From IMG/VR virus record IMGVR_UViG_2695420564_000008: a stretch of 4,595 nt of DNA; one strand, written 5' to 3'. Both the position numbers and the translations under genes were made by a program. Position 1 is the stretch's first letter, and each line of letters starts with the position of its first letter. The notes beneath the pieces are model-generated. The model was given only the letters and a program-made list of their open reading frames with translations, ran no database searches and was not told where the DNA came from. Positions 1-4,595 of this stretch are shown here, one piece after another. This DNA comes from a virus (Duplodnaviria; Heunggongvirae; Uroviricota; Caudoviricetes).

Positions 1-349
1 AAACAACAAGCAGCCAGCAGGCAATCACAGAAGCCACAGCAGCAATCATCACCAGCACAACACAACGAACCTCCGATGGATTTTGCTGTCTAACAGTTCA
101 ATGAATACCGCGCATTATAAGAGCCCGGCGTTTGACAGTATTATGGCGGAAACGTTGAAAGCTACTGACGAAGCGCAACGTACGGCGCTGTACACGAAAG
201 CAGAACAGCAACTGGATAAAGACTCGGCCATTGTTCCTGTTTATTACTATGTGAACGCGCGTCTGGTGAAACCGTGGGTTGGTGGTTATACCGGTAAAGA
301 TCCGTTGGATAACACCTACACCCGAAATATGTACATTGTGAAACACTAA
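1..349 (+). CDS. oppA: Periplasmic oligopeptide-binding protein OppA, 3' end (partial; gene begins upstream of the window)
   Basis: Frame-2 translation from about nt 86 to the TAA at 347-349 (LSNSSMNTAHYKSPAFDSIMAETLK...YYYVNARLVKPWVGGYTGKDPLDNTYTRNMYIVKH) matches my recollection of the E. coli OppA C-terminus. It is followed 85 nt later by oppB, the native operon order. The frame is open from the window edge, but nt 1-85 encode a low-complexity stretch I do not recognise as OppA (see findings). Confidence 0.85.
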   Translation, partial: NNKQPAGNHRSHSSNHHQHNTTNLRWILLSNSSMNTAHYKSPAFDSIMAETLKATDEAQRTALYTKAEQQLDKDSAIVPVYYYVNARLVKPWVGGYTGKDPLDNTYTRNMYIVKH

Positions 350-360
350 TGGCAATACGT

Positions 361-381
361 GGGGCAGGAGAGTCCTGCTCC
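361..381 (+). promoter_or_regulatory. Stable GC-rich hairpin in the oppA-oppB intergenic spacer (possible intra-operon attenuator or mRNA 3'-end stabiliser)
   Basis: GCAGGA (364-369), loop GAG, TCCTGC (373-378), extendable to about 9 bp with one G-U pair (361-381). A TTTTT run lies 10 nt downstream (392-396), so it is not a canonical intrinsic terminator. Its position between the binding-protein gene and the permease genes fits differential expression within ABC-transporter operons. Confidence 0.35.
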
Positions 382-434
382 ACGGTGTCTGATTTTTATC
401 GCATTACAGAAGGCACAGGCCAGAAGGTAGGGCA

Positions 435-1355
435 ATGTTAAAATTTATTCTACGTCGCTGTCTGGAAGCGATTCCGACGCTATTTATCCTCATTACTATT
501 TCGTTCTTTATGATGCGTCTCGCTCCGGGAAGTCCTTTTACCGGAGAACGTACATTACCGCCAGAAGTGATGGCCAATATTGAAGCGAAATATCACCTAA
601 ATGATCCGATCATGACGCAGTATTTCAGTTATCTGAAACAACTGGCGCATGGCGATTTTGGCCCTTCTTTTAAATATAAAGATTATTCGGTCAATGATCT
701 GGTTGCATCTAGTTTCCCGGTTTCTGCAAAACTCGGGGCCGCTGCATTTTTCCTTGCGGTGGTACTGGGCGTTAGCGCAGGTGTTATTGCCGCTTTAAAT
801 CAAAATACTAAATGGGATTACACGGTCATGGGACTGGCGATGACCGGGGTGGTTATTCCCAGTTTTGTAGTTGCGCCATTATTAGTGATGATATTTGCGA
901 TCATTTTGCACTGGTTGCCCGGCGGCGGCTGGAACGGCGGGGCGCTGAAATTCATGATCCTGCCGATGGTCGCTTTATCACTGGCTTATATCGCCAGTAT
1001 TGCGCGTATTACCCGTGGTTCAATGATCGAAGTTTTACACTCTAACTTCATTCGTACCGCACGCGCGAAAGGCTTACCTATGCGACGCATTATTTTCCGT
1101 CATGCATTAAAGCCTGCGTTGTTGCCCGTGCTCTCTTATATGGGGCCCGCATTCGTCGGCATTATTACCGGCTCTATGGTGATTGAAACCATTTATGGTC
1201 TACCGGGTATCGGGCAGTTGTTTGTTAATGGCGCATTGAACCGTGATTATTCGTTGGTCTTAAGCCTGACCATTCTGGTTGGGGCGTTGACCATTCTGTT
1301 CAATGCCATTGTCGATGTACTGTATGCGGTTATCGACCCGAAAATTCGTTACTGA
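435..1355 (+). CDS. oppB: Oligopeptide ABC transporter permease OppB
   Basis: 306-aa ORF with ATG at 435 preceded by AGGTAGGG; TGA stop at 1353-1355. The translation (MLKFILRRCLEAIPTLFILITISFFMMRLAPGSPF...DVLYAVIDPKIRY) is a full-length match to E. coli OppB as I remember it, hydrophobic multi-span throughout. Confidence 0.97.
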   Translation: MLKFILRRCLEAIPTLFILITISFFMMRLAPGSPFTGERTLPPEVMANIEAKYHLNDPIMTQYFSYLKQLAHGDFGPSFKYKDYSVNDLVASSFPVSAKLGAAAFFLAVVLGVSAGVIAALNQNTKWDYTVMGLAMTGVVIPSFVVAPLLVMIFAIILHWLPGGGWNGGALKFMILPMVALSLAYIASIARITRGSMIEVLHSNFIRTARAKGLPMRRIIFRHALKPALLPVLSYMGPAFVGIITGSMVIETIYGLPGIGQLFVNGALNRDYSLVLSLTILVGALTILFNAIVDVLYAVIDPKIRY

Positions 1356-1369
1356 TACTGGAGCTCGCG

Positions 1370-1585
1370 ATGATGTTAAGTAAGAAAAACAGCGAGACGC
1401 TGGAAAATTTCAGTGAAAAGCTGGAGGTCGAAGGCCGCAGTTTATGGCAGGACGCGCGTCGACGTTTTATGCATAACCGCGCAGCCGTCGCCAGTCTGAT
1501 TGTGCTGGTGCTTATCTCGCTGTTTGTGATTCTGGCGCCAATAATTTCTGCGATTAAAAAAAGTTACCTTGTATGCAATATGTGA
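1370..1585 (+). pseudogene. oppC: oppC, 5' fragment only (permease truncated after about 57 codons by a junction with foreign DNA)
   Basis: ATG at 1370 with CTGGAG Shine-Dalgarno. MMLSKKNSETLENFSEKLEVEGRSLWQDARRRFMHNRAAVASLIVLVLISLFVILAP matches the OppC N-terminus. After about nt 1542 the frame reads ISAIKKSYLVCNM and stops at 1583-1585, where native OppC continues for roughly 245 more residues. oppD and oppF are absent. Confidence 0.85.
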
Positions 1586-1625
1586 ATTAAAAGAGATAGT
1601 TGGCAATATCTGATAAGTATTCTCT

Positions 1626-1640
1626 GCCTGAGTATCAGGC
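1626..1640 (+). other. Short palindrome GCCTGA-GTA-TCAGGC followed by a T-rich run (terminator-like or operator-like)
   Basis: Perfect 6-bp inverted repeat with a 3-nt loop, followed by TCTATATTTTT (1641-1651). A wider imperfect inverted repeat CTGATA (1610-1615) / TATCAG (1633-1638) surrounds it. It sits immediately upstream of the TTG at 1650. Confidence 0.3.
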
Positions 1641-1649
1641 TCTATATTT

Positions 1650-2387
1650 TTGAGCACAATAATTCACCAGTATGAAGGCGTACTCTATCAAGCGGGAAAC
1701 TTGCCACCAGACCACGGCAGCAAAGACATAGAAAACTTATTATTTGGTTCTATTATTTCTACTAGAGAAGATACCGAAAGATATCTAAATGAAGGTGTTT
1801 TCGATGGTATGAAGTGCTTAGCAAGTGGATTATGGCACGTTCCTAGTGATTTCATTGCTTCCCTTGCAGGGGTTAAGAGAGCCCCTGACATTCCACTCAT
1901 ATTCTCACCAGCATATATAAAAAAAGAACTAGATATCACATCAGGACGTTACTTTTTCTACGATTTTCGCGAACATGATACCACCGTATCGTCTGTGGAA
2001 GATTTGTATATATCAAGACCGTGGGTTGAATATATAGCTGAAAGCATGGATAAAAATCAGCCAATACCCAGCATACTCCATTTGGGTTCACACGATCTTT
2101 ATGAAAAGGAATTTAAAAACATAGAGCATGGAAATAGAGCACGACATAGCCTGAACCGTGAGAATAGCATTATGGCGTTGATTTATGTGAAACGGCACTA
2201 TCCGGAAGAGTGCAAAGGGAAAAACGGGAAAGAAACCAACGAAGCGTGGGCAAACGCTACGATAGACCACTGGCCACATGTGGGTGGCGATTATGATGAA
2301 CCATCTACAGATTATTTAAAGAAGATCATATCTGACATGGACAGATTGCCGGAAAAACGTACCACGGCAGGAAAGAAGAAATCATGA
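1650..2387 (+). CDS. Hypothetical protein, 245 aa from the TTG start (192 aa if the in-frame ATG at 1809 is used); AT-rich orphan cargo gene
   Basis: Long open frame ending at TGA 2385-2387 in an AT-rich segment, with no overlapping ORF of comparable length on either strand. The start is uncertain: TTG at 1650 has only a weak Shine-Dalgarno-like TCAGG upstream and an in-frame stop lies 6 codons upstream at 1629-1631; the first in-frame ATG is at 1809, preceded by GAAGGTG. No transmembrane segment, signal peptide or catalytic motif recognised by eye. Confidence 0.6.
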   Translation: MSTIIHQYEGVLYQAGNLPPDHGSKDIENLLFGSIISTREDTERYLNEGVFDGMKCLASGLWHVPSDFIASLAGVKRAPDIPLIFSPAYIKKELDITSGRYFFYDFREHDTTVSSVEDLYISRPWVEYIAESMDKNQPIPSILHLGSHDLYEKEFKNIEHGNRARHSLNRENSIMALIYVKRHYPEECKGKNGKETNEAWANATIDHWPHVGGDYDEPSTDYLKKIISDMDRLPEKRTTAGKKKS

Positions 2388-2388
2388 T

Positions 2389-2420
2389 AATAAAATTTAG
2401 TATCGTGACAATAAAATTTA
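2389..2420 (+). promoter_or_regulatory. Tandem direct repeat AATAAAATTTA (2389-2399 and 2410-2420) in the intergenic region upstream of the AlpA-family gene; candidate operator
   Basis: Two identical 11-mers with a 21-bp centre-to-centre spacing (two helical turns), in the 112-bp AT-rich gap between the 245-aa ORF and the AlpA-like gene. TTGAGC (2434-2439) and TTAAAT (2450-2455) hexamers are nearby but with poor spacing, so no promoter is asserted. Confidence 0.3.
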
Positions 2421-2499
2421 CTGTAATTCACTTTTGAGCATGCACACCATTAAATACCCGTAACGAAGCAACAACTATCGCTAAGAGGTTACGGGAAGC

Positions 2500-2703
2500 A
2501 TGAACACCGACACGATTCCTACAAAAGGCTATATCAGACGCTTTCGCCTGGCTGAATTGCTGGGCGTTAGTGTATCCACCATCGACCGTAAAGTAAGAAA
2601 CGGTTCACTACCACGTCCGGTAAAGCTGGGAGAAAAAATAACTGCGTTTGATGCGGTTGAGATTCACAACTGGCTGGCAGAACGCCGCGGGAAGGTGGCC
2701 TGA
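2500..2703 (+). CDS. AlpA-family helix-turn-helix transcriptional regulator (prophage or island regulatory, excisionase-like)
   Basis: 67-aa ORF with ATG at 2500 preceded by AAGAGG/GGGAAG. The translation RLAELLGVSVSTIDRKVRNGSLPRPVKLGEKITAFDAVEIHNWLAERR has the arrangement I associate with AlpA / Phage_AlpA HTH proteins. Its TGA stop (2701-2703) overlaps the next ATG by one base (TGATG). Confidence 0.85.
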   Translation: MNTDTIPTKGYIRRFRLAELLGVSVSTIDRKVRNGSLPRPVKLGEKITAFDAVEIHNWLAERRGKVA

Positions 2704-3134
2704 TGGAAAAGAAAAACCGCCCATTACAGGCGGCTAATTCAGATACTCGCGTATCTGATGTTACGCCCCTTACAAAATCCCTTCAAGCACCAAAGCGCAC
2801 ACCGAAAAAGCATCGTGCCAGAGTCTATATGCTGCGTACTGGTATAGAGGGATGGACAGAAAATGACATTCTTCGCTACTGCCGTCTGTCTTCTGGTCGT
2901 AACTATGCAACAGAGTTAGAACGCCAGCTTGGAATCACTCTGGAGCGTATCGACGAAAAGAATCCTGATGGTATCGGAACACACCTTCGCTACCGTTTCT
3001 CCTGCCGCGGTGATGTTCTGAAAGTGATCACTCATATTAACCATCTTGCGAACATAAATGATCACAACGGACTTTCTCAGCAGGAAATTGCCGACATTCT
3101 GAAACTCTACCCGGACGCGTTTAACGCCGCCTAA
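2703..3134 (+). CDS. Hypothetical protein, 143 aa, basic N-terminal region; translationally coupled to the AlpA-like gene
   Basis: ATG at 2703 overlaps the upstream stop; TAA at 3132-3134. Lys/Arg-rich N-terminus (PKRTPKKHRAR). No family recognised from memory. Confidence 0.7.
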   Translation: MEKKNRPLQAANSDTRVSDVTPLTKSLQAPKRTPKKHRARVYMLRTGIEGWTENDILRYCRLSSGRNYATELERQLGITLERIDEKNPDGIGTHLRYRFSCRGDVLKVITHINHLANINDHNGLSQQEIADILKLYPDAFNAA

Positions 3135-3146
3135 CGGAGACTGAAA

Positions 3147-3980
3147 ATGAACATCGAAAAAAGCAGATTAATTTCTGAGGCCGCCCCTCATCTGAACGCC
3201 TCTCTGGGCACAATTAACGGTAATGAATTTGCCGCAATTGTCCCGGTTATTCCTGGTCACATCGGTGGGCGTGAAACCAATATTGTTAGCGCAAAAGCGT
3301 TACACAAAGCGTTGGGCGTGGGAAAAGACTTCTCTACATGGATCACTGATCGCATCTCTGAATATGACTTCACCATTGGGCACGATTACTCAGTCCATAA
3401 AACAATTTCCCCAAATTTGGGGAAAAGCCCGAATGGCGCGGCTTACAGCAAGATTAAGCAGTCTGGCAGACCCGGCAAAGACTATCTGTTAAGTGTCGGA
3501 ATGGCGAAAGAACTGGCAATGATCGAACGCAATGATCAGGGTCGCGCTATCCGTCGTTATTTCATCCAGTGCGAGGAAGAATTACAGCGTAGCGTGCCTG
3601 AAATCGCCGCCCGCTATCGTCGCCAGCTAAAAGCCCGTATCAGTGCCGCAAACAACTTTAAGCCAATGTGCGATGCGCTGAATATGGCCCGTGCCGAGCA
3701 GGGGAAAACGACGCAGCAACACCACTACACAAACGAGAGCAATATGATTTCTCGTATCGTTCTTGGAGGGCTAACTGCTAAGCAGTGGGCGCGGATAAAT
3801 GGCTATTCTGGCGAACCTCGCGACCATATGAACGCAGAACAGCTTGAGCACCTCTCATATCTCGAAAGCACCAATATCACGTTAATTGATATGGGCATGG
3901 AATATGAGCAGCGCAAAGGAGAACTCACCCGCCTGTCGCAACGCTGGCTCGCCAAGCGTCTGGAGGCGGTCCATGTTTAA
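3147..3980 (+). CDS. Phage antirepressor-like protein with an N-terminal AntA-type domain
   Basis: 277-aa ORF with ATG at 3147 and GGAG 7 nt upstream. The N-terminal region (ALHKALGVGKDFSTWITDRISEYDFTIGHDY ... DYLLSVGMAKELAMIERNDQGRAIRRYFIQCEEEL) matches the signature I recall for AntA/AntB antirepressor N-terminal domains. I cannot assign the C-terminal half. Confidence 0.85.
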   Translation: MNIEKSRLISEAAPHLNASLGTINGNEFAAIVPVIPGHIGGRETNIVSAKALHKALGVGKDFSTWITDRISEYDFTIGHDYSVHKTISPNLGKSPNGAAYSKIKQSGRPGKDYLLSVGMAKELAMIERNDQGRAIRRYFIQCEEELQRSVPEIAARYRRQLKARISAANNFKPMCDALNMARAEQGKTTQQHHYTNESNMISRIVLGGLTAKQWARINGYSGEPRDHMNAEQLEHLSYLESTNITLIDMGMEYEQRKGELTRLSQRWLAKRLEAVHV

Positions 3981-4143
3981 GCCGACAGGAACACCACAAC
4001 CTCAAAAACGCTACAAAGATGCCCACGGAGCACTCGTTACTGTCGAAAGCGTGTCTCACAACCGAGTGACGTTTTATCGCGACGGGTATCAATCGCCATG
4101 CGTACAACCGCTGGCGCGCTTCATGAAGGAGTTCTCTCTTTAG
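3973..4143 (+). CDS. Small hypothetical protein (56 aa), translationally coupled to the antirepressor-like gene
   Basis: ATG at 3973-3975 overlaps the upstream TAA (ATGTTTAA arrangement), with GGAGG 5 nt upstream; TAG at 4141-4143. The ORF track extends this frame back to an ATG at 3886 (85 aa), which would overlap the upstream gene by 95 nt; the coupled start is more parsimonious. No family recognised. Confidence 0.5.
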   Translation: MFKPTGTPQPQKRYKDAHGALVTVESVSHNRVTFYRDGYQSPCVQPLARFMKEFSL

Positions 4144-4240
4144 TCACGCTCACATTACGCGACCAATACTAACAAAACATTAACACTATCTGGCAAAATT
4201 TTGTTCTAAACTTGATCTCAGCGAAATGGCTGCGCCTGAA

Positions 4241-4269
4241 TTGTGATAAAAATCACATTTTTATCACAA
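4241..4269. promoter_or_regulatory. Perfect 12-bp inverted repeat TTGTGATAAAAA-TCACA-TTTTTATCACAA with an embedded CRP-like site TGTGA-N6-TCACA (4242-4257)
   Basis: Directly readable: left arm 4241-4252, spacer TCACA 4253-4257, right arm 4258-4269. The nested TGTGATAAAAATCACA fits the CRP half-site consensus with a 6-bp spacer. It lies about 200 bp upstream of the gapA start. Confidence 0.5.
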
Positions 4270-4285
4270 CTGCCCTTTAAAATTC

Positions 4286-4298
4286 GGGGCGCCGCCCC
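4286..4298. other. GC-rich palindrome GGGGCG-C-CGCCCC (short hairpin or protein-binding site)
   Basis: Near-perfect 13-bp palindrome. On the minus strand it is followed by GAATTTTAAA, giving a weak terminator-like appearance; no T-run follows on the plus strand. Function unclear. Confidence 0.25.
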
Positions 4299-4393
4299 CA
4301 TGTGGTCTCAAGCCCAAAGGAAGAGTGAGGCGAGTCAGTCGCATAATGCTTAGGCACAGGATTGATTTGTCGCAATGATTGACACGATTCCGC

Positions 4394-4421
4394 TTGACGC
4401 TGCGTAAGGTTTTTGTAATTT
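4394..4421 (+). promoter_or_regulatory. Probable gapA proximal promoter: -35 TTGACG (4394-4399), 16-bp spacer, extended -10 TGTAATTT (4414-4421)
   Basis: Hexamers and spacing read directly; a second TTGACA lies at 4379-4384. Consistent with my recollection that gapA has a strong extended -10 promoter, but not verified against the published start site. Confidence 0.55.
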
Positions 4422-4452
4422 TACAGGCAACCTTTTATTCACTAACAAATAG

Positions 4453-4595
<143 letters not shown>

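Follow-up and report, generated by a model that had tools for sequence, protein, structure and literature searches.

The IMG/VR virus record IMGVR_UViG_2695420564_000008 (Caudoviricetes) contributes the 4,595 nucleotides analysed here, called the window throughout, in which an AT-rich open reading frame (ORF) at 1650-2387 lies beside a module formed by alpA and an antirepressor gene (Ant). The question raised by this locus is what such a gene is and what it does: the initial annotation described an orphan, single and compact, and proposed it as accessory and possibly anti-phage cargo. The answer obtained here is a different one. The ORF is very probably what is left of a gene that in intact islands stands between the integrase gene (int) and alpA, a slot gene for which the working name X is used and whose product in Escherichia coli 042 has 281 amino acids (aa; WP_000735991.1). 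Taken as a whole, the explanation favoured on balance combines this truncated remnant with a role of the intact X family in the life cycle of phage satellites.

The reading frame at 1650-2387 and its parent gene

The ORF begins with TTG on the + strand and encodes 245 aa, as had been described, and no other coding stretch of the window has so low a GC content (40.9%; 37.8% at third codon positions). The stretch 1681-2100, put at about 40% GC and at the most AT-rich part of the window, measures 39.5%. The difference in composition from the neighbouring island genes is likewise borne out, the remaining island (2500-4134) having 49.7% GC and alpA 50.5%, while oppB, for which 50-60% had been claimed, measures 46.5%, a contrast that is real but smaller.

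When the translated ORF is aligned with WP_000735991.1, 244 of its 245 residues are identical to residues 37-281, and the sole mismatch is the TTG read as Met. The annotated start of X in E. coli 042 lies 108 nt (36 codons) 5' of the equivalent of this TTG, and intact copies use ATG. The DNA alignment with E. coli 042 is perfect 3' of position 1630 and unrelated 5' of it, and the remnant amounts to the 3' 87% of the 281-aa gene. The native ATG, the ribosome-binding site, the promoter and the first 30-36 residues are absent from the window copy, and the N-terminus is retained in all full-length X homologues; the ORF has neither the native start, nor the ribosome-binding site, nor the full-length alignment of an intact gene. 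Upstream, in-frame stops are found at 1611-1616 and as a TGA at 1629-1631, the latter created by the junction itself. The features at the cut are the following:

1632-2387, + strand: 5'-truncated X remnant, codons 31-281 and stop, matching E. coli 042 (mechanical ORF 1650-2387)
1626-1640, with a T-run to 1650, + strand: junction hairpin GCCTGA-gta-TCAGGC with a terminator-like score, including the TGA at 1629-1631

The two arms of this hairpin have separate sources, the left one coming from a filler of foreign DNA and the right one from the island, on either side of the junction between 1629 and 1630, and the E. coli 042 counterpart at this position is GGGAGTATCAGGC, without a hairpin. The palindrome that had been credited to the gene as its own is a product of the junction, terminator-like and not a promoter element. 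The lone promoter-like site on the + strand lies at 1729-1756, inside the ORF.

Judging from these alignments, the window ORF is very probably a truncated remnant of the int-alpA slot gene, and this copy of X is in all likelihood non-functional, because its start, ribosome-binding site, promoter and N-terminal residues have been lost and an in-frame stop and a terminator-like hairpin stand at the cut. It is not the complete gene that had been supposed, and the ambiguity between TTG and ATG starts becomes moot, since the native ATG lies 36 codons upstream in intact copies and is absent from the window. An alternative would be that the window ORF itself, in a 245-aa or a 192-aa form, is expressed and functional as an N-terminally shortened protein: its 245 codons are open and identical to the parent except at the start, and the conserved C-terminal domain of X is intact in it. 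This alternative is very improbable, given that neither a Shine-Dalgarno sequence nor an upstream + strand promoter-like site is present, that the terminator-like hairpin is immediately 5', that the short form is unmatched among full-length family members (short entries being contig-end partials), and that no recorded gene has the junction-specific product. The stretch 1549-1629, which weakly resembles X, was also considered as a decayed 5' end of the gene and was ruled out, being 100% identical to unrelated Escherichia albertii intergenic DNA.

The X family and its place between integrase and alpA

By sequence similarity X is no orphan and belongs to an unnamed, undescribed protein family. 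A word-indexed search yields nine clusters at 90% identity, all from Enterobacteriaceae, 37-100% identical and 281-312 aa long, and a profile search of 1.84 billion representatives yields 171 proteins at E<=1e-3, 51 of them at E<=1e-10. The 171 correspond to as many clusters at 50% identity, and most are 270-350 aa long and matched end to end. The finding that would have marked the ORF as spurious, a lack of conservation outside this locus, is not what is seen, the family existing across orders of Gammaproteobacteria. The most conserved part is formed by the N-terminal ~40 residues (consensus LPLEYCxLDRAARLLxCExxDLLHWGAIGAIxL), followed by a variable middle region and by a C-terminal block common to many members (HxNxERxAxNRExxLxAAIY...P.EC).

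The earlier observation that no domain is recognisable holds for both the 245-aa and the 281-aa forms, neither of which has a match in Pfam, NCBIfam, PHROGs or PADLOC, and a comparison of 60 family members with Pfam gives nothing recurrent and one marginal HTH_17 match. A profile search against PDB sequences returns noise only and no relative, Foldseek against BFVD viral structures returns nothing at E<=0.001, tblastn of 50,697 phage records finds no match to X, and a pattern scan of species-representative genomes with the close-family alignment finds no relative. A structure model built from 27 sequences, which replaced a 10-sequence model that was poor in the middle region (predicted local distance difference test score, pLDDT, 57), predicts two winged-helix domains, one N-terminal and one C-terminal, and no enzyme, nuclease, NTPase/ATPase, TIR or membrane fold. 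The N-terminal domain is predicted to be a winged helix of the Xis/MerR/AlpA type, and the window copy is without its two helices, the lost residues being those predicted to form the helix-turn-helix. Differences from these regulators are that no Pfam model of such domains (HTH_17, Phage_AlpA, MerR) reaches threshold for X, that X has 4-5 times the length of Xis or AlpA, and that the predicted Xis/AlpA-type domain is the part missing from the window copy.

In all 11 contexts examined, the X-family gene is found between a P4-type integrase gene and alpA, on the same strand, and the flanking integrases contain Arm-DNA-bind_3, Phage_int_M and Phage_integrase domains. A survey of homologues for recurrence beside alpA, integrases or defence islands had been suggested at the outset; recurrence beside integrase and alpA is what it gives in these 11 contexts, and no move outside this slot. 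The contexts are:

E. coli 042 and U90, yicC site: int-X-alpA
IMG/VR locus L008: int-X-alpA
Leclercia, adjoining mipA: int-X-alpA
Enterobacter hormaechei, yicC site: int-X-alpA
Aeromonas schubertii, Arsukibacterium and Rheinheimera, smpB/ssrA site: DUF927 primase, or HTH_36 and DnaB
Three metagenome islands: int-X-alpA, one of them a minimal int-X-alpA-primase-SSB element

The int-X-alpA order is independent of the attachment (att) site (yicC, mipA or ssrA) and of the replication module. A ~140-aa protein follows alpA and precedes the replication module in 10 of the 11 contexts, and it recurs in almost every related island, those of Aeromonas, Arsukibacterium and Rheinheimera included; in the remaining context, locus L029, the primase follows alpA directly. 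Enterobacter and Leclercia have 4-10 bp between the integrase stop and X, and E. coli has about 95 bp. The minimal island (L029 1100-8212, metagenome contig ERZ28668902 NODE_A755) consists of int, an X-family gene, alpA, a DUF927 primase, SSB and one more gene, the same architecture as described for the PICMIs (phage-inducible chromosomal minimalist islands) of Vibrio.

In E. coli 042 and its relatives, the parent island of the fragment sits at a fixed attachment site and contains int, alpA and a DUF927 primase. In E. coli 042 it adjoins yicC and runs from the integrase through X, an AlpA-type helix-turn-helix protein, the 143-aa protein, AntA/B, DUF4222 and Ash to a TOPRIM/DUF927 primase. Such islands resemble EcCIMP1, an experimentally proven phage-inducible chromosomal island (PICI), that is, a satellite, of phage Kapi1 in E. 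coli (ISME J 2025, PMC11773190), with an alpA-antirepressor-Ash-primase-PerC backbone (PMC11773190). The parent island shares this backbone (alpA just downstream of a P4-type int, and genes for antirepressor, Ash, DUF927 primase and PerC), the EcCIMP1-like order being int - X - alpA - 143-aa protein - Ant - DUF4222 - Ash - ... - DUF927 primase - SSB/PerC, and thrW/proA-type islands (L018 and L019) have a 143-aa protein (p143) and an Ant 99% identical to those of the window. On the other hand, the integrase of the EcCIMP1-type (thrW) islands is only 29% identical and their slot is without X, and the window contains an internal 2.5-kb fragment without int or primase.

A slot of this kind is known from the PICMI satellites of Vibrio, in which an integrase-overlapping or integrase-contiguous gene (iolg/icg) has been described in 13 families, with a few elements lacking it (Nat Commun 2024, PMC10803314). 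In PICMI115, deletion of iolg abolished excision and transduction (PMC10803314). The likeness to X lies in a single same-strand gene that a small satellite of the int-alpA-primase type has between its tyrosine integrase gene and alpA and that is near the integrase stop, overlaps int (as an unrelated 216-aa E. coli gene does, by 4 nt) or is absent, and in the many mutually unrelated families, with no known domains, that fill the slot. The intact X family has this position in its 11 contexts, and the copy in the window, from which int is absent, does not. Differences are that PICMIs belong to Vibrionaceae, with fis as their integration site and virulent phages as their helpers, and that the excision requirement shown is that of PICMI115 iolg only.

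The role of intact X

By analogy with these systems, intact X may tentatively be seen as an accessory factor or regulator of excision and induction, helper specificity included, rather than as a defence gene, a proposal with somewhat less than an even chance of being right. X would be a DNA-binding accessory or regulatory factor in the excision and induction cycle of the satellite and the enterobacterial counterpart of the Vibrio PICMI iolg/icg slot gene. It could cooperate with Int and AlpA, either at the att sites or at the co-inherited alpA promoter, and its variable parts might set the specificity for a helper phage or for an element. The position lock between int and alpA across Enterobacteriaceae, Aeromonas, Arsukibacterium and Rheinheimera fits a life-cycle or specificity gene better than free-floating defence cargo, and the restriction to DNA-binding-type domains (as predicted), the co-inheritance of the alpA-upstream region and the PICMI precedent point the same way.

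The slot is hypervariable in E. coli. Among 5,426 complete genomes, 795 contain the alpA-Ant module (577 of them at least 80% of it), and X DNA of any extent is found in only 145 and a full match in only 37. In the yicC-type islands the integrases are 97-99% identical and p143 is 97-98% identical, and the slot genes between these near-identical flanks differ; the thrW-type islands (EcCIMP1 type) have a different integrase and an empty slot. The slot alleles are:

281 aa: X, in yicC-type islands
321 aa: very divergent family member, E 1.7e-61 to the family hidden Markov model, 39% over 54 aa by BLASTP
216 aa: unrelated, overlapping int by 4 nt
293 aa: unrelated, in yicC-type islands

The left boundary of the exchanged cassette, as seen when the int-to-slot DNA of E. 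coli 042 (L001 14818-14915) is compared with that of L015, L008 and L017, a region absent from the window, is immediately after the start codon, so that the upstream region, the ribosome-binding site and the ATG are common to the slot alleles; this boundary is unusually precise. On the right the cassette ends at a conserved inverted repeat, 43 bp short of the alpA ATG, and the DNA upstream of alpA consequently travels with the slot gene.

Several of these observations weigh against a life-cycle role. Near-identical integrases carry unrelated slot genes, and thrW-type islands, the type of EcCIMP1 itself, are without a slot gene and yet inducible (PMC11773190); on both grounds the slot gene is not a universal integrase cofactor, and X as a strict cofactor of this kind is unlikely. 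In PICMI115 the iolg deletion was complemented by int and iolg together, and an effect via int is possible (PMC10803314). X is likened to PICMI iolg by slot position and gene order. Moreover, a hypervariable slot between conserved flanks, a low GC content and integrase adjacency are also the signature of a defence hotspot (PMC9122126, PMC13586616, PMC12595487).

Intact X could accordingly be single-gene anti-phage or abortive-infection cargo in an integrase-proximal satellite hotspot, a legitimate alternative that we consider unlikely. The hypervariability of the slot between near-identical flanks, the GC content of X, lower than that of the island, the small share of module-bearing E. coli genomes with X DNA (145 of ~795) and the dispensability of the slot gene in EcCIMP1-type islands would all agree with it. 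Defence systems are documented in hotspots beside the integrase of P4-like satellites and of Pseudomonas tmRNA islands (PMC9122126, PMC13586616, PMC12595487). In P4 the hotspot lies between int and psu, and the multi-domain defence systems in it are recognisable as such (Rousset et al. 2022, PMC9122126; PMC13586616); the X slot resembles this hotspot as a variable locus with conserved flanks beside a P4-type integrase in an enterobacterial satellite. It differs in holding one small, predicted winged-helix protein without a defence-database match, and in that the X family recurs in the int-alpA slot across orders of Gammaproteobacteria. PADLOC gives no support: PADLOC-DB v2 has 0 matches for the 245-aa and 281-aa forms, 0 for five other members and no recurrent family among the 60 members compared. 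The 321-aa allele has a weak match to the PADLOC candidate PDC-S31 (E 0.002), which is not reproduced in the family and was set aside as noise. The model of X also predicts winged helices only and no effector fold of the nuclease, NTPase, TIR or membrane kind. Defence genes usually move between element types and loci, and the X family is never found outside the int-alpA slot in its 11 contexts. Defence loci of PICIs are reported between att and int, as cited in PMC13586616, and those of PICMIs lie between prim and fis (PMC10803314). Of the cargo proposal made for the window ORF, then, the variability of the slot stands, while homology to known defence proteins is not found with PADLOC and the copy at hand is truncated anyway.

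The DNA that travels with the slot gene bears on a further alternative. Two of its features are retained in the window:

2389-2420, + strand: AT-rich motif AATAAAATTTA, two copies 21 bp apart, directly 3' of the X stop
2457-2495, + strand: inverted repeat CCCGTAAC(23 nt)GTTACGGG, surrounding the alpA ribosome-binding site (Shine-Dalgarno)

The 32.5 kb of the E. coli 042 locus contain two exact copies of AATAAAATTTA, both directly after X. A partly palindromic GATAnTAAA...TTTAnTATC arrangement is also found 3' of X in L008 (2262-2297) and in Enterobacter and Leclercia (L011 10926-10968 and L010 10926-10969). It is kept between alleles only 37-56% identical, and the 321-aa allele has a GC-rich terminator-like hairpin in its place. 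The motif may serve as an operator or belong to the alpA promoter. The GTAAC...GTTAC core of the second repeat is kept in all island variants aligned, Enterobacter and Leclercia included, and the repeat coincides with the right-hand edge of the variable cassette, since from 2457 onward the 281-aa and 321-aa alleles match again; it could be an operator or a translational hairpin controlling alpA.

From this arrangement it may be proposed that X is a sensor-repressor like Stl, the master repressor of the staphylococcal pathogenicity islands (SaPIs), silencing the island at operators upstream of alpA, from which a helper protein that binds the variable part would release it, so that alleles define the inducing helper. 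The probability of such a repressor is low. In its favour, the predicted architecture of X resembles that of SaPI Stl proteins, which have a DNA-binding domain at the N-terminus, a variable middle region and a helical domain at the C-terminus, measure about 280 aa and are int-adjacent; size, integrase adjacency, N-terminal DNA-binding domain, divergent sensor parts and strong allelic diversity among otherwise similar islands would be common to both, as an architectural analogy. X and the alpA-upstream region are exchanged as one cassette, AT-rich repeated or palindromic motifs between X and alpA are kept in distant alleles, and the way in which helpers turn on alpA in Gram-negative PICIs is left open in the literature (PMC11773190, PMC10803314). 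On the other hand, conservation from Aeromonas to E. coli is strongest in the N-terminal domain, and allele-specific operators would predict divergence at this putative DNA-binding end. Stl is transcribed divergently from the operon that it represses, whereas X is co-directional with alpA, and no sequence or fold match was obtained for X in the searches given above. Islands without a slot gene, such as EcCIMP1, are moreover helper-inducible (PMC11773190).

In its broadest form, this analogy would make the intact X family the switch, so far missing, with which Gram-negative PICI/PICMI-type satellites sense a helper, equivalent in function to SaPI Stl; this is a doubtful proposition. An allele-specific winged-helix protein together with its own alpA-upstream operator region would then form an exchangeable specificity cassette between int and alpA, and it would depend on the X allele which helper phage can set off alpA expression and excision.

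The patchwork of the window and the meaning of X

The window (1-4595) is a mosaic of five unrelated pieces, namely a prophage ssb part, chromosomal oppA'BC', E. albertii intergenic filler, the island fragment and gapA. They are listed here with the opp genes they contain:

1-85, + strand: 3' part of ssb from a lambdoid/P22-like prophage, 100% identical in at least 137 to about 172 E. coli genomes
84-1548, + strand: oppA 3' end, oppB and start of oppC, 98.9-99.2% identical to six NCBI assemblies (L002-L007)
435-1355, + strand: oppB, within the chromosomal piece 84-1548
1370-1542, + strand: first ~58 codons of oppC, which is cut at 1542/1548
1545-1629, + strand: 85-bp filler, 30% GC, E. albertii intergenic DNA, 100% identical to NBRC 107761
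1630-4134, + strand: internal island fragment of 2,505 bp, 99.96-100% identical to E. coli 042 and relatives
4135-4595, + strand: gapA upstream region and first 131 nt of gapA (start 4465), 95.5% identical to E. coli

The junctions lie at 83-85, at 1542-1548, between 1629 and 1630, and at 4133-4135, with overlaps of 0-4 bp between pieces. The matching ssb copies sit in a prophage operon Rad52-ssb-anti-RecBCD in E. coli genomes, and positions 1-85 show no alignment with oppA in the genomes matched by 84-1548, the ssb part being fused to the middle of oppA. The opp piece is ~90% identical to all E. coli, and the match to E. coli gapA loci (95.5%) runs from window position 4133 onward. The filler is found in E. 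albertii NBRC 107761 (contig NZ_BBMY01000150.1, L025 903..819) with other flanks and has no match among the 5,426 E. coli genomes; by this identity it is part of neither the island nor X. In a megablast of the window against these 5,426 complete genomes, none covers at least 80% of it, and matching there is limited to 1630-4134. An exact look-up of two junction-specific ORFs in public assemblies and a metagenome scan for the 1629/1630 junction found none, and the five-piece arrangement is seen in no public genome examined. The window may be a scrambled locus or a chimeric assembly, and X is beheaded in both cases.

The location in a foreign island, next to an AlpA/Ant module, had been recognised from the outset. 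Of the island genes, alpA, p143, Ant and a shortened DUF4222 gene are kept in the window, and int, primase and att are absent:

2500-2703, + strand: alpA, 67 aa, AlpA/Xis-type regulator (Pfam Phage_AlpA, E 2.2e-8)
2703-3134, + strand: 143-aa protein (p143), a 'PM1773 family protein' in newer PGAP/NCBI annotation
3147-3980, + strand: AntA/AntB-type antirepressor, 277 aa (Pfam AntA E 1.1e-21; PHROG anti-repressor E 1e-37)
3970-4134, + strand: DUF4222 gene, last 7 codons lost at the right junction, ORF continuing to 4143 in gapA-upstream DNA

The p143 start overlaps the alpA stop (ATGA, 2700-2703), and p143 has weak winged-helix (HTH_91) matches. The N-terminal half of Ant is a standard AntA domain, and its C-terminal half (residues 165-266) matches the PADLOC candidate PDC-S22 (E 9.7e-11). 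Two side observations concern related islands. The E. coli 042 island contains, 3' of the primase (L001 23891-28727), P22-like ejection genes (DUF2824, 'phage DNA ejection protein'), which suggests either that a satellite and a prophage remnant are combined there or that these genes were taken from the helper. Additionally, an 87-aa island protein of E. coli ISHS7 (WP_135129246.1, L017 6721-6984) is named 'nicotinic acetylcholine receptor subunit beta' in RefSeq, an evident mis-annotation.

The ORF in the window is in all likelihood a dead fragment in a patchwork and is not worth pursuing as a defence candidate from here; it represents, in truncated form, an undescribed family whose place in satellites is a slot of a known kind. 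What is of moderate value for the phage-satellite field is that enterobacterial EcCIMP1-like islands have a single-gene slot between int and alpA, as Vibrio PICMIs do, that one unnamed family with two predicted winged helices fills it from E. coli to Aeromonas and Rheinheimera, and that E. coli islands exchange the slot as a precise cassette together with the DNA upstream of alpA. X is consequently a concrete gene for studying the means by which helper phages turn on alpA and excision.

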